DNA of 64,000 bases from Gemmatimonadales bacterium (GCA_044867445.1 JBIOUY010000027.1:18124-82123), one strand, 5' to 3'; shown: positions 6,505 through 60,476, counted from the first letter of the stretch. Notes: a model not told the origin generated them from the sequence alone. Numbers and translations: made by a program.

Positions 6505-6505
6505 C

Positions 6506-7411
6506 GTGCCCAGGGTACTGGTCATCACCAATCCCGCCGCCGCGCGGACCCGCCAGGGTGCCGTAGACGCGGTGATGCGCACGCTCCACTCCTCCGGCTG
6601 GAGCGCCGAAGTGCTTGCCACCGGCGGTCCGGGCGATGCTCGACGCCTGGCGGAGTACGGGGTAGCCGAAGGGGTGGAGACCGTCGCCGTGTTCGGGGGT
6701 GACGGGACCACGATGCAGGCAGCCGCGGCACTGGTGGGCACGGAGGTCAAGCTCGGGGTCATTCCCGGAGGCACCGGGAATCTCCTGGCGGGAAATCTCC
6801 GAATTCCGGCCTCTCCGGCGCGTGCCGCGCGAGTGCTTGTCGCAGGGCGGCCGCGACCGTTCGATCTGGGGAGAATGGAGCGGAATACCGGCGTGGAGTA
6901 CTTCGCGGTGGCCTGTGGTGCGGGATACGACGCCCGAGTGATGGCGGGGACGCAGTCGGTGCACAAGCAGCGCTGGGGCATGGCAGCCTACGTCGCAACG
7001 ACGCTTCGGCTGATGGGTGAGATCCGAAGCACGGCCCACATCATCACCATCGACGGGGTGGAGTACGACGCCAATGCCGCTATGGTGCTCATCGCCAATT
7101 GTGGCGAGGTCATTCCGCCGTACGTGCGGTTGCGATCGGGGATCCGCCCGGATGATGGACTCCTGGACGTCGTGGTCATGCGGGCCAACAGCCTGGGGCA
7201 GAGCGTCCGGGCGGTGTGGGATCTGCTTCGGGACGCACCCGGCGTGGCCGGAGAAGACACCTTTGTGGGTTATGCCCAGGGCCGGGAGATCAGGGTGGAA
7301 ACCGAGCCGGTGCAACCAGTTCAACTCGACGGCGAGCCCGGAGGGGAGACCCCCTTTACCGTACGGGTGGTTCCTGGGGCAATCCGAATCATGGTGCCTT
7401 CGGCGGCGTGA
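6506..7411 (+). CDS. diacylglycerol/lipid kinase family protein (YegS/BmrU-like)
   Basis: VAVFGGDGT catalytic-domain motif. I moved the start to the GTG at 6506, just after the tamB stop at 6502-6504. Confidence 0.8.
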   Translation: MPRVLVITNPAAARTRQGAVDAVMRTLHSSGWSAEVLATGGPGDARRLAEYGVAEGVETVAVFGGDGTTMQAAAALVGTEVKLGVIPGGTGNLLAGNLRIPASPARAARVLVAGRPRPFDLGRMERNTGVEYFAVACGAGYDARVMAGTQSVHKQRWGMAAYVATTLRLMGEIRSTAHIITIDGVEYDANAAMVLIANCGEVIPPYVRLRSGIRPDDGLLDVVVMRANSLGQSVRAVWDLLRDAPGVAGEDTFVGYAQGREIRVETEPVQPVQLDGEPGGETPFTVRVVPGAIRIMVPSAA

Positions 7412-7530
7412 GGCATGGCGCAGATCGAGCGACTGTTTAATTTCTAGAGGGCTCCGCTGTCGTCCCTCGCAAGCAGGCCGCTCGCTTGGCGCGGGATGAC
7501 CCTCTCGAGGTCCTCACATCAGGTATCCCA

Positions 7531-12483: not shown

Positions 12484-12744
12484 GCACTGCAACTGCGCAC
12501 TGCAACTGCGCACTGCAACTGCAACTGCGCACCACGGAGACACGGAAGACACGGAGATTGCACGGAACTGTAAGCGGGCTGCTTCTATTCTTTTGATAAG
12601 CTGAGGGTGCCTCTCCCCACCCCATCTTCTCATGTGAATGAGCCGGCGTGGCATTCCGTGCTGTCTTCGTGCTCTCCGTGTCTCCGTGGTGCGCAGTTAC
12701 AGTGCGCAGTTACGGTGCGCAGTTGCTTTGCCGAAGTGCGCAGC
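12484..12744. repeat. paired inverted tandem-array module B (compound: GCACTGCAACTGC-type plus ACACGGAG-type units)
   Basis: The left arm at 12484-12565 is (gcactgcaactgc)x3 followed by cacggagacacggaagacacggag. The right arm at 12656-12744 is ccgtgctgtcttcgtgctctccgtgtctccgtgg followed by (tgcgcagtta[c/a]ag)n, its reverse complement. A loop of about 90 nt with lower GC separates the arms. The module sits between the convergent acpS and kinase genes. Confidence 0.9.
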
Positions 12745-24384: not shown

Positions 24385-24611
24385 AGTAGGAAGTGAGAAG
24401 TGAGAAGTAGAGGAGTAAGGAGTGAGGAGCGATGTCCTCCTGGAGAGAGCCCGGAAGGGCGACCGGAAGGGGCCGAAGCTCGATTTGGTTTCGGCTCCCT
24501 TCGTTCGCTGCGCTCAGTCCAGGGTGACTGCAGGCTCCCCCGACGTTCCCGCCTTCTCACTTCTTACTTCTCACTTCTTACTTCTTACTTCTCACTTCTC
24601 ACTTCTCACTC
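24385..24611. repeat. paired inverted heptamer-array module C (GAAGTGA/GGAGTAA type), inside the thiS-thiG junction
   Basis: The left arm at 24385-24429 is purine-rich heptamers. The right arm at 24553-24611 is CTTCTCA/CTTCTTA units. The 123-nt core contains a degenerate GATCCCTCGCTGCGCTC-like motif at 24495-24528. The thiS stop TGA (24610-24612) abuts the array. Confidence 0.9.
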
Positions 24612-27260: not shown

Positions 27261-29051
<1,791 letters not shown>

Positions 29052-31250: not shown

Positions 31251-31500
31251 CAGCAAGAAGTAAGAAGTAAGAAGTAAGAATGTGAGAGGTGAGGAGTAAG
31301 GAGTAAGGAGCAAGGAGTGAGGAGTGAGGAGCAGGGTTAGTCCTCCTCATCCCGAGCGTAGGCCAGGGATCTGCTCAGCTGTCATCGCGACCCGCCGAGC
31401 AGACCCCTCCGTCAGGTACGCTCCCTCGGGATGACGAACCCGTTCAGTGGGTCACTCCTCACTCCTCACTCCTCACTCCTTAATTCTCACTGCTCACTGC
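31251..31500. repeat. paired inverted heptamer-array module D (GAAGTAA/GGAGTGA type), between the zinc-ribbon ORF and ruvB
   Basis: The left arm at 31251-31334 has about 12 units. The right arm at 31453-31500 is CACTCCT units followed by CACTGCT units. The core is itself a nested inverted repeat: cctcatcccgagcg at 31345 pairs with cgctccctcgggatgacg ending at 31436. Confidence 0.9.
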
Positions 31501-31676
31501 TTTTCTTGCAGCCTCGCCGTCCAGCGCACCGGTCGCTCGCCCGGCTGAATGAAGTGCCGGGCACCACAGTGGGAACACCGGTCGGTCAGCTGGATCGCGC
31601 GCGCCGGCACCAGTTTGCGATTGGTAGTTCCGCAGCGAGTGCAGTTCCACTCGGCGGTCACGGCAGCAACCGGCAT
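31494..31676 (-). CDS. small zinc-ribbon protein (CxxC...CxxC)
   Basis: 60 aa with CTRCG...CSHCG. It fills the gap between ruvA and module D, and its stop lies inside the right arm of the module. Confidence 0.5.
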   Translation of the reverse strand: MPVAAVTAEWNCTRCGTTNRKLVPARAIQLTDRCSHCGARHFIQPGERPVRWTARLQEKQ

Positions 31677-31682
31677 GAAGAG

Positions 31683-32282
31683 TTACTTCCCCGCTCGAAC
31701 CGCGCCGAGCTGCTGGAGCGCGCGGCGGATGAGCTGCGAGGTGTCTTGAGAGGCGCCGGACGCGAGCGCGGCGCGGACCGCGTCTTCTGCGGGCCCCGCG
31801 CCGTAGCCCAGCCCGATGAGCGCGGTTACGGCCTCGCCGGCGCCGCTGGGAGCCGGAGCCGGGGGCTCGAGCCCCACGTCGCCAAACCGGTCCTGCAGCT
31901 CGAGGACCAAGCGTTCGGCCTTCTTCCTCCCAATACCACCAACCGAGCTCAGCGCGGCCAGATCACGAGAGCGGATACTCCGTACGGTCCGCTCGGCTCC
32001 GAGCGCCGAGAGCAGCGCCAACGCCAGCTTGGGCCCGAAGCCGCTCGCGCCGAGCAGGCGCTGGAACACGATACGCTCGGAGGGCCGGTCGAACCCAAAG
32101 AGCGACCAGCCGTCTTCCTTGACCACGAGCTCGGTATGAAGGCTGACCCGTGCGCCTTTGCCGGGCAGGCGCTCCGCCACGCCCAGCGGCAGGGTCAGCG
32201 CGTAGCCCACCCCGCCGTCGGTCTGTACCACAATAGTGTCGCCCTCGCGCTCGACCAGGACCCCGGCGACTATAGCGATCAT
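31683..32282 (-). CDS. ruvA: Holliday junction DNA helicase RuvA
   Basis: MIAIVAGVLVE... OB-fold N-terminus. HhH motifs (LLGASGFGPKLALALLS, LSSVGGIGRKKAERL). Confidence 0.9.
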   Translation of the reverse strand: MIAIVAGVLVEREGDTIVVQTDGGVGYALTLPLGVAERLPGKGARVSLHTELVVKEDGWSLFGFDRPSERIVFQRLLGASGFGPKLALALLSALGAERTVRSIRSRDLAALSSVGGIGRKKAERLVLELQDRFGDVGLEPPAPAPSGAGEAVTALIGLGYGAGPAEDAVRAALASGASQDTSQLIRRALQQLGAVRAGK

Positions 32283-32791
32283 CGCGCGCCGGTGACCTGG
32301 CGGAAGAAGACCGCCTGACGGGTTGCGATCAGCAGATGGGTCAGTGCGACAGCTACTCCGTCCGCCGCGTCACCTGGCGACGGCGGACCCTTGAGACGCA
32401 GCAGTTGGGCTACCATGTAGGCCACTTGCGGCTTGAGCGCGGCACCCTTTCCTACGATCGTCTTCTTGACCAGCGCTGGTGAGTATTCCGCGATGCTGAC
32501 GCCTGCCTCTTCGGCTGCCAAAAGGATCACTCCCCGGGCATGGCTCAGGACCACCGTGGTCCGGACGTTCTTGGCGTAGAACGCACTCTCCACCGCGACG
32601 GCCTGGGGCGCGTGGCGATCGATCAGTTCCGCCATACCGTCGTGGATGACCCGCAAGCGGGTGGGGAGAGGATCGCGCGGAGTTGTGGTGAGCGTTCCGC
32701 ACTCCATCAGCCGGAGGTGCGATCCCGAGCCGCCCTCCACCACCCCGTACCCGAGGACCGTGGTGCCCGGGTCGATGCCAAGCACCCTCAC
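32279..32791 (-). CDS. ruvC: crossover junction endodeoxyribonuclease RuvC
   Basis: VLGIDPGT catalytic Asp motif. Start moved to the GTG at 32791, which removes overlap with the yebC stop at 32802. Confidence 0.85.
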   Translation of the reverse strand: MRVLGIDPGTTVLGYGVVEGGSGSHLRLMECGTLTTTPRDPLPTRLRVIHDGMAELIDRHAPQAVAVESAFYAKNVRTTVVLSHARGVILLAAEEAGVSIAEYSPALVKKTIVGKGAALKPQVAYMVAQLLRLKGPPSPGDAADGVAVALTHLLIATRQAVFFRQVTGAR

Positions 32792-32801
32792 CGCCCGACT
32801 C

Positions 32802-33551
32802 TCAGGCTTGGGCCTCGGCCAGCTGGGCAGCGTCGATATCGAAGTTGGAGAAGACCTTGGAGACGTCATCCAGCTCCTCCAGCGTCTCCACCAACCGAAG
32901 GATCCGTTCGGCGTCCGTGCCTTCCACTTTCACGGTGCTCTTGGGCACCATCGCGAGCTCGGCGGAATCGATGGCGAAGCCGCGCGACTTGAGCGCGTCC
33001 TGCACGGCGTGGAACATGGAGGGAGTCGTGGTGATCACGTATTGATCGCCCTCTTTGGCAAAGTCCTCGGCTCCTGCATCGAGGGCGGCTTCGAGGGTGG
33101 AGTCCTCGTCGCGCCGCGCCGCGTCGAGATAGATCTGTCCCTTTCGGTCGAACATCCAAGCGACGGAGTTGGTTGCGCCGAGGTTGCCACCGTTACGACT
33201 GAACGCATGGCGAATCTCGGCCACGGTCCGGTTGGCATTGTCGGTCGTCACTTCGATGAAGATTGCCGCCCCGCCAGGCCCGTACCCCTCGTAGGTCAGC
33301 TCCTCGTAGATACTGCCTTCGAGCTCGCCGGTGCCCTTCTTGATAGCCCGATCGATATTGTCGTTAGGCATGTTCACCGCCTTCGCCGCATCGATGGCGG
33401 TGCGAAGGCGAGGGTTACCGCCAGGGTCGCCGCCGGCGCTCTTGGCGGCTACGGTGATCTCACGAATGACCTTGGTCCAGGAGGAGGCTCGGCGCGCGTC
33501 GGTGACGGCCTTCTTGCGCTTGATCTGCTTCCATTTGCTGTGTCCGGCCAT
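32802..33551 (-). CDS. YebC/PmpR-family DNA-binding transcriptional regulator
   Basis: MAGHSKWKQIKRKK N-terminus; 249 aa. Confidence 0.9.
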   Translation of the reverse strand: MAGHSKWKQIKRKKAVTDARRASSWTKVIREITVAAKSAGGDPGGNPRLRTAIDAAKAVNMPNDNIDRAIKKGTGELEGSIYEELTYEGYGPGGAAIFIEVTTDNANRTVAEIRHAFSRNGGNLGATNSVAWMFDRKGQIYLDAARRDEDSTLEAALDAGAEDFAKEGDQYVITTTPSMFHAVQDALKSRGFAIDSAELAMVPKSTVKVEGTDAERILRLVETLEELDDVSKVFSNFDIDAAQLAEAQA

Positions 33552-33674
33552 GGCCGAACTCCTTCACGCTAACGATGTTGGGCGGGCGGCAACGGGGGGC
33601 GCCGGCGGCTCGGCGCATCGGCGGAAACATAAGCCGGACAGCCGCTTGCGGCAACGCGGCGGAGCGCTTCACCC

Positions 33675-33703
33675 TTGACCCATCGAGGCCGCCCTGGTAG
33701 TCT
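33675..33703 (+). promoter_or_regulatory. candidate sigma-70-type promoter for the lipoprotein gene
   Basis: TTGACC (33675-33680), a 17-nt spacer, then TAGTCT (33698-33703). It sits about 10 nt upstream of the ATG at 33713. This is sequence resemblance only. Confidence 0.3.
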
Positions 33704-33712
33704 CCCAGCCCT

Positions 33713-34132
33713 ATGCTCCCCGCCAAAATTCATGGTGCCCTGGTGCTCTGCCTGCTGCTGGTCGCCTGCCGCGACCGCACCCCGCACACGCCCAAGATTG
33801 CAGAGGTTTTCCCCAACCTTCCTCTTCCCCCGGAACCGAGCTTCGTGTCGCGTGCCGGCGGACCAGACGCCCTCCAGTTCACTTTCCGATCGCCGGCACC
33901 GGCAGACCAGGTCGCGGCCTATTATCGCAAGGTGTTTAAGCAAGGTGGATGGAAGCTGGTCAGCGATGCCAAAGATGCCGATGGGGCTGTGGTCCTCTTG
34001 GCTGAGCAGAAGGGACCACCGCTCTGGGTTCGCATTCGGAAGTCGGATGATGGCCATAGCACGGTGGTCGAGCTCGCCGGAGCAGTGGTGGCCAAGAAGG
34101 ACAGCACTGGCGCTCGCAAACCGACCTCATGA
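33713..34132 (+). CDS. hypothetical lipoprotein
   Basis: Signal peptide with lipobox (ALVLCLLLVAC). 139 aa; no family recognised. Confidence 0.6.
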   Translation: MLPAKIHGALVLCLLLVACRDRTPHTPKIAEVFPNLPLPPEPSFVSRAGGPDALQFTFRSPAPADQVAAYYRKVFKQGGWKLVSDAKDADGAVVLLAEQKGPPLWVRIRKSDDGHSTVVELAGAVVAKKDSTGARKPTS

Positions 34133-34143
34133 GGCGCTGACGC

Positions 34144-34306
34144 TCAGGTGGACGGGTTCTTAGCGATGATGAGCTCGGTGCCGTCTTCGACACCCTGGCC
34201 CGGCCGGTAGATCTCCTCCCGGTAGATCGCCAACACCACAATCCGCATTCTGTTTGATCGCGCCTAACCCGCCGAGATCGTCAAGTATCGGCGGGGACCG
34301 CCGCGC
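34144..34306 (-). pseudogene. decayed C-terminal fragment of a DnaB-type replicative helicase (frameshifted and truncated)
   Basis: The minus strand reads ...RRSPPILDDLGGLGAIKQNAD, then after a 1-nt frame change IVVLAIYREEIYRPGQGVEDGTELIIAKNPST*. This parallels the DnaB C-terminus [30 protein letters not shown]....GIAEIIIGKQRNGP. A TAA lies directly upstream in the first frame. Confidence 0.6.
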
Positions 34307-34717
34307 TTAGGTCCGATGTCGGGGAGCTGCGCTCGGGCGATGATGAAGCGTAGCCCGGGCAGCTCGGGCTGCCTGAGCCACGGCGTCCCCTGCCTCAGGA
34401 CCACCGGATTCCCGAGCCGGTGCCACCAACTGGCTCAGCACCTGAGCAGCGACTTCAGGGCTCGCCACTCGGAGTTGGCTCATGGCCGCGCTCAGCGCGC
34501 GCCGCAGCGGCGGTGGTATGGTGAGACTGGAAAGTCGATGCTCGAGAGCTTGAAGACGACGTCGATGAGCGCGGTCGCTGGGGGGAGGGTCCTGCAGCAG
34601 GTCCTGGGCAACCCGCAGGGTGAGCCACAAGGCGAAGATTCCCTCCCGGCGTGGCCCTCGGCCTGTTTGAGGCAGGAGAGTGAGTAACTCGGTGGCCGAG
34701 GGGTCCCAGCCGGTCAT
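34307..34717 (-). CDS. hypothetical protein (may be non-functional or part of the decayed helicase region)
   Basis: The ATG at 34717 overlaps the GT9 stop. The sequence is Ala/Arg/Pro-rich with no family. The weak VLSQLVAPARESGG resemblance to DnaB ALSQLNRAVEQRGG is not convincing. Confidence 0.35.
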   Translation of the reverse strand: MTGWDPSATELLTLLPQTGRGPRREGIFALWLTLRVAQDLLQDPPPSDRAHRRRLQALEHRLSSLTIPPPLRRALSAAMSQLRVASPEVAAQVLSQLVAPARESGGPEAGDAVAQAARAARATLHHRPSAAPRHRT

Positions 34718-35721
34718 GCGATGCTCCGCCGCAGGGCATCGAACACCGAGGCTGGTGTGATCTCTTTCATGCAGCGGTGATGACCCTCTGGACACACTGG
34801 CCCTCCCATCGCACTACAAGGGCGACAGGGGAGAGTGGTCTCCAGGACCTCGGCCGCCTGGCCGTAGGGAAAGAAGCCGAATGCGCGCACCGTCGGTCCG
34901 AAGAGGGCAACGAGCGGCGTGCCAACGCCGGTGGCCATGTGCATGACTCCGGTGTCGCCGCTGATCAGCACCCGAGCGTGCGCGAGAAGCGCTCCGGTCC
35001 CCTGGAGCCCGAACCGGCCCGCAGCCCTCCACGTCCGCTCCCGATGGTCTCGAGCCAGCTCGTCGGCCAGCTCGGCATCGTCCGGACCGCCCACGATCAC
35101 CACGTCCATGCCTGCGCAAACCACGCTGTGGAGCAGCCGGGACCAGTAGTCCATAGGCCACCGCTTGGTATGGTGCGCTGCCCCAGGCGCGATGGCGACT
35201 AAGGGACGGCCGGGATGGAGGCCCTGGGCCACCAGCCAGGCGGCGGCCTCATCGCGCGCCCGCCTGGCCAGGAAGAATTCGGGCGACTTGCCGTCGGGGT
35301 GCACATCCAGGTCTCGCGCCGCGTCGAAGTAGCGCTCGGGCACCGGACGAACGTCGCGGTACCGGTTTCGTTTGGTATGGATCAGGAGGGCCCGGCGGAT
35401 GCGGTGCTTCGGGTAGGTCCGCCAGGGACCAGGCACCATAGCGCGCAGCAGCTGGCTGCGCACGCTGTCGTGCAAATCGAGCAGATGGGTAAAGCCCTCG
35501 GCGCGCAGCTCGGCTGCGATGCGGACCAGCGAGCCCGAGGGATCGAGGGCCATGACCCGATTGATCCGCGGATTGTCGCTGAGCAGCGGCGCAAATGCCC
35601 GCTTGGTGAGCACTGTGATCCGGGCTTCCGGATGGCGTTGGCGGATGCTTCGCAACAGCGGCGTGGTGAGCAGCACATCGCCGATGGAGCTGAACCGGAC
35701 CACGAGGACGTTCGGGAGCAT
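34714..35721 (-). CDS. glycosyltransferase family 9 (LPS heptosyltransferase-like)
   Basis: VVRFSSIGDVLLTTPLLRSIRQRHPEARITVLT N-terminus and the C-terminal GDTGVMHMA motif. Start set at MLPNVLVV (35721); the ORF-track extension reads through module E. Confidence 0.85.
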   Translation of the reverse strand: MLPNVLVVRFSSIGDVLLTTPLLRSIRQRHPEARITVLTKRAFAPLLSDNPRINRVMALDPSGSLVRIAAELRAEGFTHLLDLHDSVRSQLLRAMVPGPWRTYPKHRIRRALLIHTKRNRYRDVRPVPERYFDAARDLDVHPDGKSPEFFLARRARDEAAAWLVAQGLHPGRPLVAIAPGAAHHTKRWPMDYWSRLLHSVVCAGMDVVIVGGPDDAELADELARDHRERTWRAAGRFGLQGTGALLAHARVLISGDTGVMHMATGVGTPLVALFGPTVRAFGFFPYGQAAEVLETTLPCRPCSAMGGPVCPEGHHRCMKEITPASVFDALRRSIA

Positions 35722-35740
35722 GGGCCGAGAGGAATGTACA

Positions 35741-35964
35741 GCAGGGGAGCAGGAAGTGAGAGGTGAGAGGTGACGGAGGGGCAGCGAGGGATCTGGGCCG
35801 GCTGCATCAAAGTCGGCGAGTAGATCCCTCGGTCGCTTGTGCTCCGTCGCTGCGCTCGGGGCACGCTCCTCGGGATTGCGCTCGGGGCATGCTCCTCGGG
35901 ATGAGGATTCACTCCGCACTCCTCACTCCTCACTTCTCACTTCTTACTTCTTACTTCTTACTGC
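35741..35964. repeat. paired inverted heptamer-array module E (GTGAGAG / CTCACTT, CTTACTT type) in a divergent promoter region
   Basis: Left arm at 35741-35779 and right arm at 35910-35964. The core holds gcagcgagggatct (35781) inverted against agatccctcggtcgc (35822). It also holds three tandem GCGCTCGGG/GCTCCTCGGGAT-like copies. Confidence 0.9.
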
Positions 35965-35992
35965 CCTCTTCTCACCCCGTTAAGTTTCAGTC

Positions 35993-37558
35993 ATGCCACG
36001 GCCCAAGAGCATTCTGTGGGTGGACGACGAGGTCGAGAGCCTCACGTCACATATCCTGTTCCTGGAAGAGCAGGGGTTTGCGGTTGAGACCAGCCCGCAC
36101 GGCGATGACGCGCTCGTGCTCCTGCAACGCCAGCCCTACGGTGTGGTGTTGCTGGATGAGCACATGCCCGGCCGTCGCGGGCTCGAGCTCTTCCGCGCGA
36201 TCCGTTCCATCGATCACGGCATGCCGGTCGTGATGGTAACCAAGAGCGAGGAGACCGAGACCCTCAAGGACGCGATCGGCGCGGACATCTCGGACTATCT
36301 CATCAAGCCGGTCAATCCCCGGCAGATTCTCTCGGTGGTGACCCGCCTGCTCGACGGCGATCGGATCCGGCAGCAGCGGCTCTCTCGCGACTTCGCCACC
36401 CGCTTTCGCGAGCTCGAGGCGCGGCGGGGTGGTCCGCTAGCCTGGCGAGAGTGGGTCGAGCTGGTGGCCGAGCTCGCCGAGTGGGAGGTGCGGCTGGGAC
36501 AGGCCGACGAGCCGGGCTTGCAGGACGCGCTCCGCACCCTGCAGGACAGTCTGCGGCAGGACTTCGCCCGATACCTCGAGCGCAACTATGCCCGGTGGCT
36601 GCACGACGGCGACAGCGACCGCCCTCCGCTCTCGGTCGACATCGGGGCCGAATTTCTGCGGCCGGTGCTCGACCGGCACGGCAAGGCGCTGCTGGTGGTG
36701 GTCGACTGTCTCCGCCTCGACCAGTGGGCCATGATTCGGCCGCTCATCAGTTCCCGCTTCGACATCGAGACGGCGCATTACTTCTCGATTCTCCCCACGG
36801 CGACTCCCTTCGCGCGCAACGCGATCTTCAGCGGACTCTTTCCCGCCGAGATCAAGGCCCGGTACCCGCGGTGGTGGACCGACCAGGAGGAGGCCAGCCT
36901 CAACGCGCACGAGGCGGAGCTGCTCACCGAACAGCTCAAGGAGATCACCGGGCGCTCCGTACCGGTGCATTACGAGAAAGTCTTCACCGCCGCGGATGGT
37001 GATGGACTGCTCCGGCGGCTCCCGGCACACCTGGCTCAGGAGGGCGTGACCGCGCTGGTCTTCAACTTCATCGATCAGCTCACCCACGGTCGAACCGAGA
37101 ATTCGACGTTGTTCGAGGTGGCGCGCGATACCCCGGCGCTGCGGAATCTGACACGAACCTGGTTCGAGCGTTCACCCCTCTGGGACGCGCTTCGCGAGGC
37201 GGAGCGGCGTGGGGTGCCGGTACTGCTCACCACCGACCACGGCTCAATTCATTGCCATACCCCGGCGACGGTGTACGCCAAGCGTGACACCACCTCGAAC
37301 CTGCGCTACAAGTTCGGCGATGATCTGCGGGCCCAGGAGGCTGATGCTGCAGTGGTGGTGGACAACCTGCCCAGCTTCGGCCTGCCCCCACGAACACCGG
37401 GGACCAGGCTGCTCCTCGCGACCGGTGATCGGTTCTTCGTCTACCCCACGAAGCTGCGGGAGTACCAGGCACGCTATCGTGGGGCCTTCCTCCACGGCGG
37501 GGTCTCTCCCGAGGAAGTGATCCTGCCGATCGCGTTGCTCACTCCACGACACGGCTAG
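35993..37558 (+). CDS. PorX-like orphan response regulator: REC domain fused to a PglZ/alkaline-phosphatase-superfamily domain
   Basis: ILWVDDEVESLTSHILFLEEQGF...LLDEHMPG receiver domain. The C-terminal portion of about 380 aa has the PglZ pattern (VVVDCLRLDQW..., TDHGS). Its 521 aa length matches the PorX family. Confidence 0.7.
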   Translation: MPRPKSILWVDDEVESLTSHILFLEEQGFAVETSPHGDDALVLLQRQPYGVVLLDEHMPGRRGLELFRAIRSIDHGMPVVMVTKSEETETLKDAIGADISDYLIKPVNPRQILSVVTRLLDGDRIRQQRLSRDFATRFRELEARRGGPLAWREWVELVAELAEWEVRLGQADEPGLQDALRTLQDSLRQDFARYLERNYARWLHDGDSDRPPLSVDIGAEFLRPVLDRHGKALLVVVDCLRLDQWAMIRPLISSRFDIETAHYFSILPTATPFARNAIFSGLFPAEIKARYPRWWTDQEEASLNAHEAELLTEQLKEITGRSVPVHYEKVFTAADGDGLLRRLPAHLAQEGVTALVFNFIDQLTHGRTENSTLFEVARDTPALRNLTRTWFERSPLWDALREAERRGVPVLLTTDHGSIHCHTPATVYAKRDTTSNLRYKFGDDLRAQEADAAVVVDNLPSFGLPPRTPGTRLLLATGDRFFVYPTKLREYQARYRGAFLHGGVSPEEVILPIALLTPRHG

Positions 37559-37560
37559 CC

Positions 37561-39393
37561 GTGCGGCCAGGGCTCCGGCTGCTGCGACAGGTGTCGCCAT
37601 ACCGCGGCATGCTCGCGCTCGGCCTGGCCAGCACCTTCTTTGCTTCGTTGCTGGACGGCTTTACGCTGATCATTCTCATTCCGCTGCTACGGAATCTGTT
37701 CGGCACCTCGGGGGAACTGCATGCCGGCTCGACCAGGCTGGAAGAGCTCACCGCCAGGCTGGTCGAGCCAGTGGTAGCCGGTCTCTCGCATGGGGCTGCC
37801 GCCGGGCGCCTGGTCGTGGTCCTTGCGCTCGTGCTGCTGCTCAAGAACGCACTGGCGTACGCCTCCACCCAGATTACTGTGGCAATCCAGGAGGGTCTGG
37901 TGCGCGACCTGCGCGTCCGGATTTTCAATCACCTCCTTACCTTGCCCTTGGGGTACTTTCAGCACACCCGCGCAGGCCAGCTCATTTCCGGAATCATCAC
38001 CGAGGTCGATCAGACCAAGACGGTAATTACCGCGTCCCTGATCTCGCTGTTTCAAAACGTGGTCGTGGTCCTGGTGACATTGTTCGTGCTGAGCCAGATC
38101 TCGCTCCGGCTGACACTGTTCACCCTGGCCTTTGTCCCCGTTCTCGTGCTCCTGTTGCAGACCATGATCCGGCGCTTGCGCGCCCACTCCCGCGCCCGCA
38201 CCCGAGAGCGAGGGGAGATCACGGCTACCATCACGGAGCGCGTCGGCGCCATCCGGCTGATCCGCTCCTACGGAGAAGAGGTCCGAGAAGGGGACACTTT
38301 CGCCGCCCAGGCCAATCGCTATCGCAAGCAGGTGATTCGAACCCAGCGGTTCTCCTCCATCACCAGCCCGCTCACCGAGGTGTTTTCCGGCTTCCTGGTC
38401 ATCCTCATCATCTGGGCCGGTACCCGGCCGGCACTGGTGGGACTCGCTACCCCGCTGGCGCCGGAGGCGATCATCGTCTTTCTGATGGCCGCGCTCAAGC
38501 TGACCTCTCCGCTCAAGACGATTGCCTCCTTTCCGGCGGTCATGGCGATCACTCTTGCGAGCGCGGAACGGGTGTTCGAGATCCTGGACGAGCCCTCGAG
38601 CGAGCTGGACCGTCCCGGCGAAGGGCAGGCCCGCTTCGATCGAGAACTCGTGTTTGACCGGGTTTCCTTTCGCTATGGTGCCGGCGACCCGGTGCTCAGC
38701 GATGTTTCCTTTTCCATGGCGAAGGGAAGGGTCATCGCGCTCGTCGGACCATCCGGTGCGGGGAAGACGACCCTGGCCGATTTGCTCCCCCGGTTTCATG
38801 ATCCGACCGGTGGACAGATTCTCATGGATGGTGTCCCGCTTACTCGGCTCACCCGCCGGTCGCTCCGCTCGCTCATGGGGGTGGTGAGCCAGGACACCGT
38901 TCTCCTCAACGACACGGTTTACGCGAACATCGCCTACGGCTCGCCAGGCGCTACCCGGCTGCAAGTGGAGCTGGCGGCCGCGGCCGCGAACGCCGCCGGA
39001 TTCATCGCCCAGCTGCCCCAGGGCTATGACACCCTTCTGGGGGAGCGGGGAACCCGGCTCTCCGGCGGCCAGCGGCAACGGATCGCTATCGCCCGGGCTT
39101 TGCTGAGGGACCCGCCGATTCTGATTCTGGACGAGGCGACCAGCGCGCTTGATACCGAATCGGAGCGCCTGGTACAGCAGGCCATCGAGCGGCTGATCCG
39201 GGAACGCACCGTGTTGGTGATCGCGCACCGGCTCGCCACCGTCCGCGATGCCGATGAGATCGTGGTCCTCGACGCCGGCCGGGTGGTCCAGCGCGGCACC
39301 CATGAGGAGCTGTTCCGCGCGGGCGGTTTGTACCGCAGGCTGTACGATCTTCAGTTCCGGGACGAGGAAACCATCCTCGCCGCGGATGTGTGA
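37561..39393 (+). CDS. ABC exporter, fused permease/ATPase (MsbA-like lipid/glycan flippase family)
   Basis: Six-TM domain. Walker A GPSGAGKTT, signature LSGGQRQR and Walker B ILILDEATSALD. Confidence 0.9.
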   Translation: MRPGLRLLRQVSPYRGMLALGLASTFFASLLDGFTLIILIPLLRNLFGTSGELHAGSTRLEELTARLVEPVVAGLSHGAAAGRLVVVLALVLLLKNALAYASTQITVAIQEGLVRDLRVRIFNHLLTLPLGYFQHTRAGQLISGIITEVDQTKTVITASLISLFQNVVVVLVTLFVLSQISLRLTLFTLAFVPVLVLLLQTMIRRLRAHSRARTRERGEITATITERVGAIRLIRSYGEEVREGDTFAAQANRYRKQVIRTQRFSSITSPLTEVFSGFLVILIIWAGTRPALVGLATPLAPEAIIVFLMAALKLTSPLKTIASFPAVMAITLASAERVFEILDEPSSELDRPGEGQARFDRELVFDRVSFRYGAGDPVLSDVSFSMAKGRVIALVGPSGAGKTTLADLLPRFHDPTGGQILMDGVPLTRLTRRSLRSLMGVVSQDTVLLNDTVYANIAYGSPGATRLQVELAAAAANAAGFIAQLPQGYDTLLGERGTRLSGGQRQRIAIARALLRDPPILILDEATSALDTESERLVQQAIERLIRERTVLVIAHRLATVRDADEIVVLDAGRVVQRGTHEELFRAGGLYRRLYDLQFRDEETILAADV

Positions 39394-39438
39394 GGCCGAT
39401 TCCTAAACTCCGGCTGCCCGGGGGAGACTGCTCGGGGC

Positions 39439-40419
39439 GTGACTGAGACGTACTCTGATGCCCGGATCCTCCTGATCGGGGCGTTCGACGACGCCATGTA
39501 TGCCCATACGGCGCTGCGCCGTCGCGCGCTTCAGCGTCTGGGCTGCGCGGTCGGGACACTGAATCTGACCAGCCCGCGCCGCTGGTGGAGCCGGTTCCGG
39601 CGGGTCAGTCTGCGGGAGCGGTTGGAACAGGCGATCGCGCAATCGGTGCCCGGGATCGTACTCGTCCTGGAAGGCAGACAGCTCGAGGCAGCGCTCGTCG
39701 CCGAACTCAAGCGCCGCACTCGCGCTCTGTGGCTCAACTGGTTCTGCGATGGCCGCCGCTCGCTCGAGACGGTCAGGTCCATTGCCCCGGCCTATGATCG
39801 GGTCTTCGTCGCTGGCAGCGAGGTGGTCGCCGCTCTGAAGCAGCCGGGCCAGCCGCCGGCCCGGTATCTCGCCCCCGCCTGCGATCCCTCCGTGCATCGG
39901 CCCATGCGATCTCGAGATCAGTTTCGGGCGAACCTGGTGTTCGCGGGCACCGCGACGCCCCATCGCGAGCGACTCCTGTCCGAGTTGGTGGAGTTCGGGT
40001 TGGCGGTATGGGGGCCTGGATGGCGAAAGACGAAACTACGGGACTACTGCCGGGGAGAGTTGCTGGATCACCTCGACTATATCCGGGCCTATGCCGGTGC
40101 ATCGGTCGCGCTCAATCTGCAGTGGGGTGAGAGCTCGGGCCCGGCTCTCGATCCCGGGTGCAACCGCCGGCTTTTCGAGCTTGCCGCCATCGGCGTGCCC
40201 CAGGTCGCGGAGGACCGTCCCGACCTGCATCTCCATTTCCAGGAGGGCTCCGAAGTGCTCGTCTCCCGGGGCATCGCCGACTTCAAGGCGCTCATCACGG
40301 AGGCGTTGCACGACCGGGGATGGGCCGAGCAAGTGGCGGCCGGCGCGCGGCAGCGAGCGCTGACCGAGCACACCTATATGCACCGGATGGCCGAGCTGTT
40401 GAAGGCAGTGAGAAGTTAG
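39439..40419 (+). CDS. CgeB-family (DUF3880-type) glycosyltransferase-like protein
   Basis: The pattern FAGTATPHRERLL...WGPGW...NRRLFELAAIG...HTY..R resembles the CgeB/YkvP-type family. GTG start. The last codons and the stop lie in module F. Confidence 0.55.
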   Translation: MTETYSDARILLIGAFDDAMYAHTALRRRALQRLGCAVGTLNLTSPRRWWSRFRRVSLRERLEQAIAQSVPGIVLVLEGRQLEAALVAELKRRTRALWLNWFCDGRRSLETVRSIAPAYDRVFVAGSEVVAALKQPGQPPARYLAPACDPSVHRPMRSRDQFRANLVFAGTATPHRERLLSELVEFGLAVWGPGWRKTKLRDYCRGELLDHLDYIRAYAGASVALNLQWGESSGPALDPGCNRRLFELAAIGVPQVAEDRPDLHLHFQEGSEVLVSRGIADFKALITEALHDRGWAEQVAAGARQRALTEHTYMHRMAELLKAVRS

Positions 40420-40614
40420 AAGTGAGAAGTGAGAAGTGAGAACAAGTGAGAAGTGAGAAGTGGATCGAGTTCGCCGTTTCCAGTCCGCCGCGACTTCCCG
40501 GTACGTTCGGGACAGATCCCTCGCTGCGCTCGGGATGAGGAGCCCCGCTCCTCACTGCTCACCTCTCACCTCTCACCTCTCACCTCTCACCTCTCACTGC
40601 TCACTGCTCACTGC
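40405..40614. repeat. paired inverted heptamer-array module F (GTGAGAA / CTCACCT, CTCACTG type) between convergent glycosyltransferase genes
   Basis: Left arm at 40405-40462 with about 8 units. Right arm at 40547-40614 with about 10 units. The core carries GATCCCTCGCTGCGCTCGGGATGAGG at 40515-40540. Both flanking genes terminate inside the arms (stops at 40417 and 40601). Confidence 0.92.
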
Positions 40615-41527
40615 TGTTCGGCATCTCCCCCGTCTTCAAATACTCGCTAAACACCCGCAGGTAGCCTTCCGCCATCGCCAGGTGGGAAAAGTGCCGCTCG
40701 GCACGGGCCCGGCACGCGGCGGGATCGATCCGATCGATGCCGCGCGCCAGTTCGACCAACTCCTCCACGCTATCCCCCAGGGCGCCTACTTCCGCTGTGA
40801 CGATCTCGGGCAAGCTACCCCGACGGGTGCCCAGTATCGGTGTGCCGCACATCAAGGCCTCGAGCAGAACATTGGCGCAGGGCTCGTCCCAGAGGGCCGG
40901 CATCCAGAGGCAGCGCGCGCCGGCCAACAGCGTCATGCGTTGTTCCCCGTACACTGTGCCAACGTACCGGACCCAGCGACTGAAGCTAGGCCGCCAGCCG
41001 CCCGCCACCACCAGACGCCGCCGGCTACGCTTCGCTCCCTCCGCGGCCCAGTGATAGCCTTTGGCATGGTGCAGCCGTCCCAGGAAGAGGTCGAAGTCGG
41101 TCTTGATCGGCTGGAAGGGATATTCCCTCGGGTCCACGCCGTTGTACACGAACGTGTGGCCACCATGACGCCGAGCATGATCGGCACTGACGAACAGGGT
41201 GTTCGGGGGGCAGACCTGGCCAGGCCTCCGGTTGCCGGCCAGGCGCCAGATCCAGGGCACCCGGGGCGGAACATGCAATGGCGAGAAGGCGCAGAGAATA
41301 TCGATATCAGCAGGCAACCATGGTTGGATATCGAAACTCGGCCCGCGTGCGGCCCGGACGTCCACCGGCACCAGCGTGGTCTCGCGGACCTCTGATCCCG
41401 ATCCGGCCAGCAGGGTAACGCGGGTTCCCAACTCCGCCAATCCGCGAGCCACAGTGACGATTGCCCGCTGAGTGCCGCCATAACCCTGCACCGGGAGCCG
41501 GTCGGGAAAGAAGAGGGCCACGTGCAT
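40601..41527 (-). CDS. glycosyltransferase family 4 (GT-B, GT1 clan)
   Basis: C-terminal EPCANVLLEALMCGTPILGTRRGSLPE (E-x7-E type motif). N-terminal YGGTQR... region. Confidence 0.75.
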   Translation of the reverse strand: MHVALFFPDRLPVQGYGGTQRAIVTVARGLAELGTRVTLLAGSGSEVRETTLVPVDVRAARGPSFDIQPWLPADIDILCAFSPLHVPPRVPWIWRLAGNRRPGQVCPPNTLFVSADHARRHGGHTFVYNGVDPREYPFQPIKTDFDLFLGRLHHAKGYHWAAEGAKRSRRRLVVAGGWRPSFSRWVRYVGTVYGEQRMTLLAGARCLWMPALWDEPCANVLLEALMCGTPILGTRRGSLPEIVTAEVGALGDSVEELVELARGIDRIDPAACRARAERHFSHLAMAEGYLRVFSEYLKTGEMPNSSEQ

Positions 41528-50306: not shown

Positions 50307-51441
50307 TCTCGCCGCGCTCCGCCGGGAGGAGTTCCCCTGGTGCGAGCACACGGTCTACCTCAACAACGCCAGCACTGGCCCACTGCCTGAGCGCACCCGC
50401 CTGGGGTTGGAAGAATTCAACCGCCGCCGGACGCAGCCATTCCGTCTGCCCGATCGCGATGTGTTCGCGATGCTGGATCACTCGAGAGCTCTCATTGGAG
50501 AGCTGATCGGCGCGGACCAGGAGGAGATCGCCCTCTCGGTCAATACCGGTTTCGGGCTGAGCCTGGCGGCCCGGGCCCTGCCGCTCAAGGCAGGGGAGAT
50601 CGTGCTGGGAAGTGATCGTGAGTTCCCCGCGAACGTGTACCCGTGGATGCGCCTCCGCGAGAGCGGCATCACCTTCGAGCGGACCCCCACGACTGAAGCC
50701 GGCTGGCCCGACGAAGACCGTCTGCTGGAGCGGCTGGGGGACCCTCGGGTTCGAGTGGTGGCGATCTCCTGGGTCCAGTTCAGCAATGGGTACATGGTGG
50801 ATCTGGCCCGGTTGTCAGAGGCTACCCGGAGCGCGGGCGTGTTCCTGGTGGTAGACGCGATTCAGGGTGTGGGACAAGTTCCCCTGGACTTGCGGCGGAC
50901 CCCGGTTGATGTGCTGGCCTGCGGGGGCCAGAAATGGCTGCTCTCACCCTGGGGCTCTGGATTCACCTATGTGCGTCGGGAGATGATTGCTCGGCTCAGC
51001 CCAGCCGTTACCGGGTGGATGGCCTTCGAGGGGACAGACGACTTCAGCCGATTGACCCGCTACGACGACAGGCTGAGGGGGGATGCACGACGCTTCGAGC
51101 TGGTTACGCTCCCCTATCAGGAGTTCGCCGGAATGAACGTCTCGCTCGAGCTGCTGCTTTCGATCGGGGTGGAACGCACCCGAGAACACCTACGGGCCTT
51201 GCATCGGCCGATTCTCGAATGGGCGCAGCGTGCCGGGGCCCGGGTGGCGTCACCCACGGACGGCCACGGCTCGGGTATCCTCTGCATTGCGCCACCCGCG
51301 GTGGACGATGTCTTCCGACGGCTCAAGGCGGCTCGGATCATCTGCAGCCTGCGGGAGGGGATGATCCGGCTGAGTCCGCACTTCTACAACAGCGTGAGGG
51401 ATATGGAGCGGGTGGTGGAGGAGCTGGAAGGTGAGAGGTGA
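50296..51441 (+). CDS. class V aminotransferase-fold PLP enzyme (cysteine desulfurase/selenocysteine lyase-like)
   Basis: YLNNASTGPLP N-terminus and VDAIQ...GGQKWL (PLP-Lys region). The GTG at 50296 overlaps the upstream gene end. The last codons GER and the stop lie in the module G arm. Confidence 0.75.
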   Translation: MSVDLAALRREEFPWCEHTVYLNNASTGPLPERTRLGLEEFNRRRTQPFRLPDRDVFAMLDHSRALIGELIGADQEEIALSVNTGFGLSLAARALPLKAGEIVLGSDREFPANVYPWMRLRESGITFERTPTTEAGWPDEDRLLERLGDPRVRVVAISWVQFSNGYMVDLARLSEATRSAGVFLVVDAIQGVGQVPLDLRRTPVDVLACGGQKWLLSPWGSGFTYVRREMIARLSPAVTGWMAFEGTDDFSRLTRYDDRLRGDARRFELVTLPYQEFAGMNVSLELLLSIGVERTREHLRALHRPILEWAQRAGARVASPTDGHGSGILCIAPPAVDDVFRRLKAARIICSLREGMIRLSPHFYNSVRDMERVVEELEGER

Positions 51442-51939
51442 AAGGTGACAGGTGACAGGTGAGAGGTGACAGGTCAGTCTTTGGGCCCGTACCGCTTTCT
51501 CAGCCCCATGAGCAGGGCCTGCGCTCTGGAGCATTGCTTTCGAGCTGGCTGGACGACCGATTTCCGGCACGATGCTCTCCGACATGCAAAGATCCAGCAG
51601 CTCTGCTGTCTCGACCGCGGAACCATAGGCAATGGTCAGATGATGTCGAAACGACCGACTCGATTGACGGGCGTACCCTTCAGCGATATTCAGTTGTACT
51701 GATAATGACGCCCGCTGCAGTTGACTGAAGACACTCGCGAGTCGAGGCTGATAGTAGTCCCGGGTGATCGCCATGACATGACCAACCAGGGCGCGTGCGA
51801 CCTGCCAGGCGACGAGGGACCGATGGTCTCGCATACTGGATGATGGCGCGGGCCGCGCGGCTTGTTGTATCGCGATCCCGCAGCCTCAATCCTGGCAGCG
51901 CTCCGGCCTTCACCTGTCACCTGTCACCTGTCACCTTCC
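51431..51939. repeat. paired inverted heptamer-array module G (GTGAnAG / CTGTCAC type) enclosing a four-helix-bundle gene
   Basis: The left arm at 51431-51472 is six GTGA[G/A/C]AG units. The right arm at 51908-51939 is (CACCTGT)n. The 435-nt core carries the four-helix-bundle ORF on the minus strand. The right arm ends 2 nt before the ATG of the next gene. Confidence 0.9.
51474..51834 (-). pseudogene. four-helix-bundle protein (23S rRNA intervening-sequence protein family), apparently frameshifted
   Basis: The N-terminal about 95 aa fit the family (SLVAWQVA...LQRASLSVQLNIAEGYARQS...AYGSAVETAELL). The family-like C-terminus (...RAQALLMGLRKRYGPKD*) and a stop at 51474-51476, at the arm edge, are in another frame, because 361 nt is not divisible by 3. 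The in-frame 194-aa ORF instead runs antisense through the array and the neighbouring gene. Confidence 0.55.
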
Positions 51940-59042: not shown

Positions 59043-59597
59043 GTGCGGTGCCTGGCGTTGAATGCCTCCTTCGAGCCACTGACAATGGTGCCGGTGCGGC
59101 GCGCCTTGCGACTCGTCATCGAGGGCAAGGCGGAGATCGTGGAATCCGACGGTCCCGACCTGGTTCGAAGTGAACGCCTGACGCTGCCCAAACCTGCAAT
59201 TATCCGGCTCATCAAGTTCGTGCACGTTCCCCGCCGCTTCCGTCGCCAGGTCACCAACACATTCCTCTTTGCTCGTGATGGTTACCGATGCCAGTTCTGC
59301 CACCGGGGACAGAACGAGCTGCGTCATCGGGAATGCCTGACCCGGGACCATCTGGTCCCGCTCTCTCGCGGGGGCGACAACGAATGGACCAACGTGGTGA
59401 CCGCCTGCAGTTCCTGCAACACTCGCAAGGGTAATCACCTGCCCGAAGAGTGCGGCATGCACCCGCTGATCGTGCCGAGGGAGCCGCACTTCGTACACCT
59501 GTCGTGGGCTGTGCGCCGGCTCTCGGCGGCGCAGGCGAAATACATCAAGTTGTTCTACGGTGAGGAAGCCCTGCGGGCGTTGGGGGGGACGGTCTGA
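59043..59597 (+). CDS. HNH endonuclease-family protein
   Basis: CQFC...LTRDHLVPLSRGG...NVVTACSSCNTRKG, the zinc-finger HNH pattern. GTG start. Confidence 0.8.
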   Translation: MRCLALNASFEPLTMVPVRRALRLVIEGKAEIVESDGPDLVRSERLTLPKPAIIRLIKFVHVPRRFRRQVTNTFLFARDGYRCQFCHRGQNELRHRECLTRDHLVPLSRGGDNEWTNVVTACSSCNTRKGNHLPEECGMHPLIVPREPHFVHLSWAVRRLSAAQAKYIKLFYGEEALRALGGTV

Positions 59598-59601
59598 GGG
59601 C

Positions 59602-59790
59602 GTGAAGCGTGAAAGGTGAAACGTGACAGGTGAAGCGTGAGAGGTGAAAGGTGAAAAGGCGCCAAAATTCGGCTCCTTTTTACTTTTTACGGTTCACGTT
59701 TCACGTCTTTTACGTTCTTTTACGTTTCCCGGTTCACGTTTCACCTGTCACCCGTCACCTGTCACCTGTCACCTTCACCCCTCACTTCAC
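59602..59790. repeat. paired inverted heptamer-array module H (GTGAnnn x8 / about 16 complementary units, AT-rich inner part)
   Basis: The left arm at 59602-59657 is eight exact-period GTGA[A/C/G][A/G][C/G/A] units. aaaaggcgcc pairs with ggctcctttt around the 7-nt loop AAAATTC (59664-59670). The right arm runs to 59790 with CTTTTTA, GTTCACG, TTTCACG and CTGTCAC units. The module starts 5 nt after the HNH stop, and the convergent gene stop (59782) lies inside the right arm. Confidence 0.92.
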
Positions 59791-60465
59791 TCTAAACGCC
59801 GGGCTCCTCGCCTCCAGCCGCAGACTCGGTAGCCCCGCCAGTCGTAGCAGGAACCGCGTTGCTCCGCGGCCCATCGCGTCGCCAATGCTCTCCTTTCCTC
59901 GTGCCACCTCTCCCAGGTCGCCGGCGAGGAAGCGCTCCAACTCGTCAAGATCGGTATCCGACAACGTAGACACCTGCAGCGAGGCGGCATAGTAGTAGGT
60001 GCCGGCGTCGGCAGGCAGCACGTTCACCTGATAGGAGAAGGCGAGAGCGGCACTGAGCGCGTCCAGAGTGGCATATCTCCTCTCCTGTGCCCGGCCTCCT
60101 ACCAGTGTCAGCATGGTGTACTGATCGAGCAACGGCTCGTGACGCATCACGACGTCCCACTCCGCCTGTCGGATGAAGGCGTCGAACCAGCCGGGCTTCG
60201 ACCGCCACACCTCAACTCGGTAATGCAACCGCACCGGGAGCCCGGACCGCAGGGCGGAGAGCCACCGGGTATCCCCCAACAGATTGTGCGAGCGGACAAT
60301 GGGCGCTCGAGCACCGTCGGCGGCAGAATCCCGGGCCAGCCTCACCTCGAGCGACACCGACCCGGTGTCTTGTGCAGCGGCGGGCTCCGCGGGGATCGTC
60401 CCCAGAGCTAGAGGGATGGCCACTGCCCAGGCTCGCCAGACAGCGGTGCCGGGCAGAAGAGGCAT
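59782..60465 (-). CDS. secreted hypothetical protein (possibly DUF4390-like)
   Basis: Signal peptide MPLLPGTAVWRAWAVAIPLALG...AAAQD. The body resembles the family found next to NtrY/NtrX operons, but I cannot confirm that. Start set at the ATG at 60465. Confidence 0.5.
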   Translation of the reverse strand: MPLLPGTAVWRAWAVAIPLALGTIPAEPAAAQDTGSVSLEVRLARDSAADGARAPIVRSHNLLGDTRWLSALRSGLPVRLHYRVEVWRSKPGWFDAFIRQAEWDVVMRHEPLLDQYTMLTLVGGRAQERRYATLDALSAALAFSYQVNVLPADAGTYYYAASLQVSTLSDTDLDELERFLAGDLGEVARGKESIGDAMGRGATRFLLRLAGLPSLRLEARSPAFRVK

Positions 60466-60476
60466 CGCGAAGAACA

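Follow-up and report, generated by a model that had tools for sequence, protein, structure and literature searches.

Neisseria genomes carry a hairpin repeat, NTS (CGTCATTCCCGCGMAVGCGGGAATCYRG, a subset of dRS3), which together with related hairpins of the Ssn-related-motif (SRM) type flanks ssnA, a gene for a single-domain GIY-YIG protein of 94 amino acids (Chenal 2025, PMC11893778). SsnA recognises the hairpin solely in single-stranded DNA, where it binds the tag strand and not its complement; cleavage occurs a few bases 5' of the tag, and RNA is not a substrate. The hairpins were found on both sides of 42% of the SsnA homologues, the biochemistry covers the Neisseria and Wolbachia homologues, and the authors likened NTS-ssnA-NTS to insertion sequences and to the pairing of repetitive extragenic palindromic (REP) elements with REP-associated tyrosine transposases (RAYT) (PMC11893778). 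Neisseria dRS3, like Rickettsia RPE-4 and RPE-6, belongs to a superfamily of CGTC-tagged REPs, which has a 3-nt tail, forms head-head dimers with spacers of 20-100 bp and is occasionally nested in longer palindromes, and neither a tyrosine transposase flanked by CGTC units nor a dedicated transposase was reported for it (Di Nocera, De Gregorio and Rocco 2013, PMC3733652). Here we analyse a core motif that recurs inside modules of inverted heptamer arrays in a 64-kb stretch of DNA from a Gemmatimonadales bacterium (hereafter the window; G+C content 65% throughout). Its best explanation, which we regard as probable, is that it represents a Gemmatimonadales variant of the CGTC-tagged REP/SRM hairpin repeats.

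The core motif is real and represents a local variant within an already described family of hairpin repeats. On the tag strand, the consensus of the unit reads (T/C)(G/C)TC-ATCCY-GA-GC-GNA-GC-GA-RGGAT-C(T/C)N and is made up of an unpaired tag, a 5-bp stem starting with A-T, two G.A oppositions, two G-C pairs, a 3-nt loop and a short tail. The apex GA-GC-GNA-GC-GA is invariant, with all four bases occurring at the middle position N of the loop. Units occur singly, as in module F of the window, or as head-out dimers with a spacer of 25-60 nt, as in modules D and E. A first-pass annotation of the window had noted that ATCCC and GGGAT form a small palindrome and had proposed to look for compensatory substitutions in this stem. 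Such substitutions were indeed present in a sample of 74 distinct by-catch copies, which had been registered by tag and apex only and none of which had been selected for pairing. All five stem pairs varied on both sides, with variants such as ATCCC/GGGAT, ATCCT/AGGAT, ATTCC/GGAAT, ATTCT/AGAAT, ATGCT/AGCAT, ATTGC/GCAAT and GTCCT/AGGAC. Double-change cells numbered 75 versus 24.6 ± 7.3 in shuffles (0 of 500 shuffles reached 75), and pairing cells made up 89% versus 13-55% when the partner column was slid. The 5-bp stem covaries, and the motif is a hairpin-forming imperfect inverted repeat, as are SRM repeats, which measure about 20-50 nt.

The apex of the unit, GC-GNA-GC flanked by tandem G.A, matches the d(GCGNAGC) mini-hairpin motif. 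According to work by Hirao and co-workers in the 1990s, d(GCGAAGC) and GNA-triloop DNA mini-hairpins are reportedly very stable as single strands. This work is biophysical and describes no genomic repeat family, and the stability was not reproduced by the folding used here.

A covariance model, R1, was built from copies collected in public contigs and then run over the window, the kind of scan that the first-pass annotation had advised. It returned the unit of module F, the dimer of module D and weak matches in modules C and E. The units and their relics, together with a look-alike hairpin, are as follows.

40513 to 40540, minus strand: module F, intact unit, a monomer (R1, 43.1 bits, E 1e-8)
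31345 to 31373, plus strand: module D, left unit of a head-out dimer (R1, 22.6 bits, E 0.0017)
31374 to 31399, no strand: module D, 26-nt spacer between the dimer units (from the sequence)
31400 to 31436, minus strand: module D, right unit, inverted partner of the left unit (R1, 15.5 bits, E 0.11)
35781 to 35795, plus strand: module E, 3' half of the left unit, GCAGCGAGGGATCTG (from the sequence; kept with 3 changes in the relative L291)
35822 to 35906, minus strand: module E, expanded and decayed right unit (Tandem Repeats Finder, TRF; local R1 match of 12 bits; same structure in L291)
24495 to 24528, minus strand: module C, probable relic of a unit (local R1 match at 24504-24516, 15 bits, E 0.14)
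7462 to 7500, minus strand: look-alike hairpin ending in GGGATGAC (fold z-scores of -1.1 and -1.9, unremarkable)

The F unit reads CCTC-ATCCC-GA-GC-GCA-GC-GA-GGGAT-CTG, and its tag faces the right-hand array; the tag-strand oligonucleotide sequence of the Gemmatimonadales unit is CCTCATCCCGAGCGCAGCGAGGGATCTG. The two copies in D had been taken for half-sites but are in fact complete head-out units, the left one reading CCTC-ATCCC-GA-GC-GTAG-GC-CA-GGGAT-CTG with a loop of 4 nt, and the right one CGTC-ATCCC-GA-(16-nt apex insert)-GA-GGGGT-CTG. The region 31342-31440 of D folds into one long hairpin (z-scores of -3.7 and -4.8). The pieces that had been listed for E are likewise present, but they belong to no more than a decayed half-unit, whose tag and 5' stem are absent at the array border, and an expanded unit. 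The latter extends from a CCTC-ATCCC-GAG head at 35906 to a AGATCCCTCG tail at 35822 and contains a 26-nt internal tandem duplication at 35851-35902 (TRF: period 26, 2 copies, 96%); the 11-nt apex GAGCGCAGCGA at 35847-35857 (minus strand) is its sole scoring part (R1, 12 bits, E 0.85). Tandem reiteration of partial unit heads (TGTCATYC plus a few bases) beside complete units was also seen in four other loci (L069, L073, L189 and L263), which the duplication in E resembles. Such reiteration may arise from slippage at the hairpin or from repeated repair.

The copy in C that had been called degenerate reads GTC-ACCCT-GGAC-TGAGCGCAGCGAA-CGA-AGGGA. Its score comes from the apex TGAGCGCAGCGAA alone and its fold is no better than those of shuffles; by eye, it retains a GTC tag, a 4-bp closing stem and the apex, with a disrupted interior. 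C is probably a relic of a unit. A solo look-alike had also been listed at 7462-7500, downstream of the gene at 6476-7411 and upstream of a sigma-54 regulator. This look-alike had no match to R1 at E<10, and its membership of the family is unproven. The homology that had been asserted for all cores stands for D, E and F and probably for C, but is unproven for 7462-7500.

All strings quoted in the first-pass annotation were found where it had placed them, and the motif exceeds chance in the window. The full 24-mer GATCCCTCGCTGCGCTCGGGATGA has a single occurrence in the window, in module F, and no other within 3 mismatches. Its 3' part, CTCGGGATGA, occurs four times versus 0.39 expected (0 of 100 shuffles reached 4), and all four copies lie inside modules, namely two inverted copies in D and the others in E and F. 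Two shorter pieces were not enriched in the window: CTCGGGAT, with 10 occurrences versus 4.8 expected, and TCATCCCG, the piece belonging to the look-alike, with 7 versus 4.5 expected. The 11-mer GAGCGNAGCGA has five copies in the window, all on the minus strand (at 24504, 27931, 35847, 38860 and 40519), for a roughly estimated expectation of about 0.26. Two of these five copies are intragenic, in tgt and in the ABC transporter gene near 38860. A partial match to the unit at 27931-27947 within tgt has no tag and was set aside as probably due to chance.

Outside the window, the motif forms a dispersed family in many phyla, in agreement with the tentative remark in the first-pass annotation that similar repeats occur in other soil bacteria. 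For the exact 23-mer of F, at least 119 matching stretches came from named genomes, which belong to six or more phyla or classes. Among the matches listed, it spans Acidobacteriota, Gemmatimonadota, Alpha-, Beta- and Gammaproteobacteria, Verrucomicrobiota and Bacteroidota, and the same matches include Terriglobia, Thermoanaerobaculia, Blastocatellia, many Gemmatimonadales and Longimicrobiaceae, as well as Reyranella, Vineibacter, Luteimonas, Legionella yabuuchiae, Burkholderiales, Chthoniobacterales and Bacteroidales. A degenerate 23-mer was found in 81 IMG/VR stretches, which are viral contigs; by our own rough estimate, fewer than 0.1 would be expected by chance. Inverted pairs of copies, 40-66 nt apart and with their tags outward, are frequent, and for 184 of the 344 canonical copies a partner lies head-out at a distance of no more than 160 nt. 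Family-wide, the tag is TGTC in 293 copies, CGTC in 54 and CCTC in 5. In the window, D-right carries CGTC, and F, D-left and E-right carry CCTC. Among the loci for which an organism name was seen, CCTC on canonical units was confined to Gemmatimonadales (L096, L109 and L120), and it was present in one viral contig as well. A search of the window and 12 motif-bearing loci against Rfam gave no family for the motif at the gathering threshold. At an E-value threshold, Rfam gave only generic long-hairpin (miRNA precursor) matches, and a literature search with the motif sequence as a string retrieved only unrelated primers. In several viral contigs (L067, L009/L016/L040 and L053/L070), the motif lies in frame in long sequences resembling open reading frames (ORFs) (for example ...ILRSAQDDKEK..., repeated 300 nt apart), which represent either insertions into genes, a phenomenon reported for REPs, or ORFs that were over-called.

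A link to a nuclease gene was first spotted by inspecting multi-copy loci. In L083, L141 (twice), L173 and L096, a small GIY-YIG gene (PF01541, about 95 amino acids, single domain) lies between two head-out units. In L096, a metagenome-assembled genome of Gemmatimonadales, the units that flank this gene, the ORF at 4686-4994, are CCTC-tagged, and one of them shares the GAGCGCAGCGA apex variant with the window. As a control for bias, 80 metagenome loci were fetched by protein alone, and positions in the same loci served as controls. With a strict unit detector (GTC tag plus a perfect 5-bp stem), head-out units were found on both sides of 32 of 79 GIY-YIG genes, compared to 0.05% of the control positions; with a relaxed detector, the corresponding figures were 46 of 79 genes and 8% of the controls. 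An earlier, loose detector (GTC plus any 5-bp stem) picked up about half noise and was dropped. All-against-all clustering for recurrent neighbour genes gave nothing beyond related viral contigs, and literature searches pairing GIY-YIG with REP, COG2827 or YhbQ returned nothing. In L083 (1157-1179) and L173 (4619-4640), the GIY-YIG gene ends at a stop codon supplied by the right-hand unit (TGA within GGATGAC), and therefore the repeat itself encodes the C-terminus ...DPSLRSG.

The window contains at least nine palindromic array modules. Hairpin units are confined to C, D, E and F; the five others have no such core and enclose a gene for a four-helix-bundle protein, a terminator-like hairpin or unrelated sequence. 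In loci elsewhere with arrays around a unit, each locus has its own array unit, but the two arrays are reverse complements of each other throughout. The arrays that border the units of D and F are the following.

31255 to 31331, no strand: left heptamer array of D (TRF; kept in L282-L284, which are without the dimer)
31452 to 31498, no strand: right heptamer array of D (TRF)
40407 to 40462, no strand: left heptamer array of F (TRF; kept in L291 and L292 without the hairpin unit)
40551 to 40615, no strand: right heptamer array of F (TRF)

The left array of F overlaps the stop of a glycosyltransferase gene (39439-40419), and the right one overlaps the stop of the gene at 40601-41527 (minus strand).

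RuvB of the window has homologues at 91-99% identity that are named as Gemmatimonadales, and orthologous sites in relatives were compared. At the D site, three independent assemblies (L282-L284; RuvB 97-98% identical) keep the same heptamer arrays, with only TGTGTCATCCCC at the apex. This sequence equals the tag plus the 5' stem of a unit and is probably a deletion remnant. Relatives at 91-93% identity have other arrays or a long palindromic spacer at this site, and no unit. At the F site, relatives at 92% and 90% identity (L291 and L292) keep the arrays but have an unrelated 42-nt apex in place of the unit. This apex is reverse-complemented between L291 (7014-7061) and L292 (local alignment score of 58 versus 12), which fits a flip by recombination between the array arms. 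At the E site, the decayed cluster is common to the window and L291, and the array copy number differs. As the arrays are kept at orthologous sites with the unit present or absent at their apex, it is the arrays that are resident and the hairpin units that are gained or lost. Gain and loss concern the hairpin unit or dimer and not the module as a whole. The view that whole modules share a common descent or move as units, which the first-pass annotation had preferred over independent local slippage, is thus not upheld; the arrays stay in place, and unit and copy number differ as by local slippage.

There is no proof that cores are specifically linked to arrays. Among 310 units elsewhere, 13 have short-period arrays on both sides within 120 nt, versus 0.36% of random positions, and the enrichment of arrays near units over random positions is 2.5-fold for any side and 12-fold for both sides. 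This is about what two intergenic features would show, and a specific statistical link was not retained; about 80-90% of the units elsewhere have no array nearby. The idea that arrays are made by cutting on the tag side was also dropped, as arrays lie on the tag side of 14 of 160 monomers and on the tail side of 12 of 160. For the arrays, though not for the units, there is a likeness to the cyanobacterial short tandemly repeated repetitive (STRR) heptamers, which were reportedly described by Mazel et al. in 1990: both are tandem heptamers in intergenic DNA with many arrays per genome. They differ in phylum and in repeat unit, and what stands out here is that the arrays are paired and inverted around a core.

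Several further observations concern the arrays and their surroundings. In the locus L153 (Gemmatimonadales), which is syntenic with part of the window, the array-only module at 59600-59785 is absent and the same two genes lie 7 nt apart (7292-7298). In the window, this module lies between an HNH gene (59043-59597) and a DUF4390 gene (59782-60594, minus strand), and its centre, aaaaggcgccaaaattcggctccttttt, resembles a two-way terminator hairpin. Inverted AGGTGAC/TCACCTG heptamer arrays at 51429-51936 enclose a minus-strand ORF at 51250-51834, which matches PF05635 (23S rRNA intervening-sequence protein, four-helix bundle) with an E-value of 2.5e-19 over profile positions 2-84 of 106. This ORF is an intervening-sequence-like cargo within the array palindrome; it continues into the array and the upstream gene, and it may be truncated. 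A link between the PF05635 gene and the motif was considered and dropped, as units in other loci had no PF05635 gene nearby. Octamer arrays of CACGGAGA-type units lie at 12533-12557 and 12662-12688 of the window, and nearly the same unit is present in an unrelated viral contig (L028) and at the ruvA-ruvB site of other Gemmatimonadales (L285 and L287), so that some array units may be common to several loci and genomes. Lastly, the TGA stop of a 60-residue ORF at 31494-31676 (minus strand) sits in the first heptamer of the right array of D. Counterparts of 57-60 amino acids with two CxxC pairs lie between ruvA and ruvB in all Gemmatimonadales relatives examined (L282-L290), and the product has no match in Pfam.

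The motif belongs to a described class of repeats and is not a new kind of system. It resembles NTS/SRM, whose orientation is set by a conserved non-palindromic 5' flank (HGTC), in being a directional hairpin repeat; its unpaired 5' tag is mostly (C/T)GTC across the family and mostly CCTC in the window. It is likewise present in hundreds of copies between genes and has a wide phylogenetic spread, and it flanks a GIY-YIG gene of about 94 amino acids on both sides at a similar rate, namely 41% in our independent sample versus the 42% reported (PMC11893778). With the CGTC-tagged REPs it shares the unpaired terminal tag (CGTC, TGTC or CCTC), the A-T start of the stem, a short unpaired tail, the apparent lack of an attached tyrosine transposase and the occasional nesting inside longer palindromes. 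Furthermore, D is a head-head dimer with a 26-nt spacer, and about half of the canonical copies are partnered head-out. The differences mainly concern geometry. NTS/SRM hairpins have a perfect 8-bp stem and a 3-4-nt loop, and the four described CGTC families have perfect stems of 8-9 bp that begin with A-T and T-A pairs, and loops of 4-5 nt, whereas the units described here combine 5 Watson-Crick pairs, tandem G.A mismatches, 2 G-C pairs and a 3-nt loop in the apex GA-GC-GNA-GC-GA. The tail is CTN or CCN instead of CCA, and the described hosts of CGTC-tagged REPs are mostly Alphaproteobacteria. The main text of the SsnA study mentions neither heptamer arrays nor Gemmatimonadota or Acidobacteria (PMC11893778).

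A number of observations weigh against placing the window units among the Ssn-associated repeats. The published SRM search string, HGTCWYN(0-2)YYVSBRHN(0-5)WNVSBRGN(0-2)RNCYNB, run as a regular expression, matches Neisseria NTS but no canonical F-type unit, and it finds 0 sites in the window, where three of the four tags are CCTC and depart from HGTC. The 64-kb window contains no GIY-YIG gene. NCBIfam holds no model for the GIY-YIG proteins encountered here, and the solved structures nearest to them are UPF0213 proteins; their relation to Neisseria SsnA (NMV_0044) and to CDD cd10448 is putative. Nearest-neighbour DNA folding gives a single unit neither unusual stability nor strand asymmetry, and the stability argument from sheared G.A pairs and the GNA loop is drawn from literature knowledge only. 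At the D site, loss fits better than gain because of the TGTGTCATCCCC remnant, and, to our knowledge, neither movement of this repeat class nor its mechanism has ever been shown. The F-type unit is filed as a variant because it is not matched by the SRM string, and also because its stem and loop geometry differs from that of the CGTC families and no GIY-YIG gene lies in the window.

The units might instead be classical REP/REPIN elements mobilised by RAYT or an IS200-like Y1 (HUH) transposase, with which they have in common an intergenic position, a tag that stays unpaired next to an imperfect hairpin, and inverted dimers as the likely unit. The resemblance extends to single-stranded recognition and to a REPtron-like layout with a nuclease gene enclosed by repeats of its own, and REPs nested in longer palindromes are on record (PMC3733652). 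However, the tag is (C/T)GTC or CCTC and not GTAG, no tyrosine transposase flanked by CGTC units is known from that survey (PMC3733652), and the only recurrent neighbouring gene family that we found encodes GIY-YIG proteins, an enzyme superfamily other than HUH Y1. In addition, a phmmer search, which was of low sensitivity as it used a single sequence as probe, detected no IS200-like ORF in 200 motif-bearing loci. We consider an origin by RAYT-type mobilisation quite improbable. That the whole array-core-array module is one mobile or commonly descended element, similar to a miniature inverted-repeat transposable element, can hardly be maintained. It is true that array modules surround each of the cores C, D, E and F and that the same architecture recurs in other phyla. 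Yet the position of four cores in array-bearing gaps has a P of about 0.09 by our own count (arrays in 9 of about 15 gaps that measure at least 100 nt), each locus has array units of its own, and arrays persist at orthologous sites without a core. Five modules of the window have other cores or none, and most units elsewhere are without arrays, only the above-mentioned 13 of 310 having them on both sides.

A further possibility is that the units are mainly RNA elements under selection, for example mRNA-stabilising or processing hairpins or terminators, and that the nuclease link is incidental for the copies in the window. D lies inside the transcription unit of ruvA, the small ORF and ruvB, and F lies between convergent genes, so that both are probably transcribed; whole modules fold as long hairpins, albeit with a generic resemblance to miRNA precursors only, and RNA roles of REPs have been argued by Di Nocera et al. 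(PMC3733652). On the other hand, a scan of 31-41 kb revealed no intrinsic-terminator or promoter consensus in D, E and F, there is no Rfam family, and the units are absent from close relatives at D and F. That identical 23-mers recur across phyla is easier to reconcile with protein recognition than with a generic RNA hairpin, and SsnA is inactive on RNA (PMC11893778). A primary role as RNA elements thus seems improbable to us.

We return to the reading of the core motif as a variant of the CGTC-tagged REP/SRM repeats. Under this reading, an Ssn-type GIY-YIG nuclease encoded elsewhere in the genome would recognise the window units, and the window dimers would probably be non-autonomous relatives of the unit-gene-unit arrangement. 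Units may enter or leave at the single-stranded tip of an extruded, pre-existing inverted-array palindrome, and the resident arrays themselves would change by slippage and by inversion between their arms. A broader idea is that inverted-array palindromes act as resident 'landing pads' whose extruded tips are preferred sites for the insertion and excision of Ssn-type dimers in Gemmatimonadota, Acidobacteriota and other soil phyla. We put this forward only tentatively and deem it rather unlikely as it stands.

What is new here is the pan-phylum F-type variant, the CCTC tag of Gemmatimonadales and the nesting of units in heptamer-array palindromes. In the window, two layers that had been merged in the first-pass annotation, namely resident heptamer-array palindromes and nested hairpin units, are now separated. 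The published SRM search string misses this major pan-phylum variant. The findings explain a sequence that litters the genomes and metagenomes of soil bacteria and yields spurious or extended ORFs, and they tie it to recently characterised site-specific single-stranded DNA nucleases of biotechnological interest. The orthologous sites with and without the dimer, at 97-98% identity of RuvB, represent a natural experiment on hairpin turnover. If the landing-pad idea were true, two repeat systems would be mechanistically coupled, with nested palindromes maintained by a single-strand-specific GIY-YIG nuclease, and the F-type unit would stand for a very large branch of the Ssn system that is still uncharted and has a specificity of its own.

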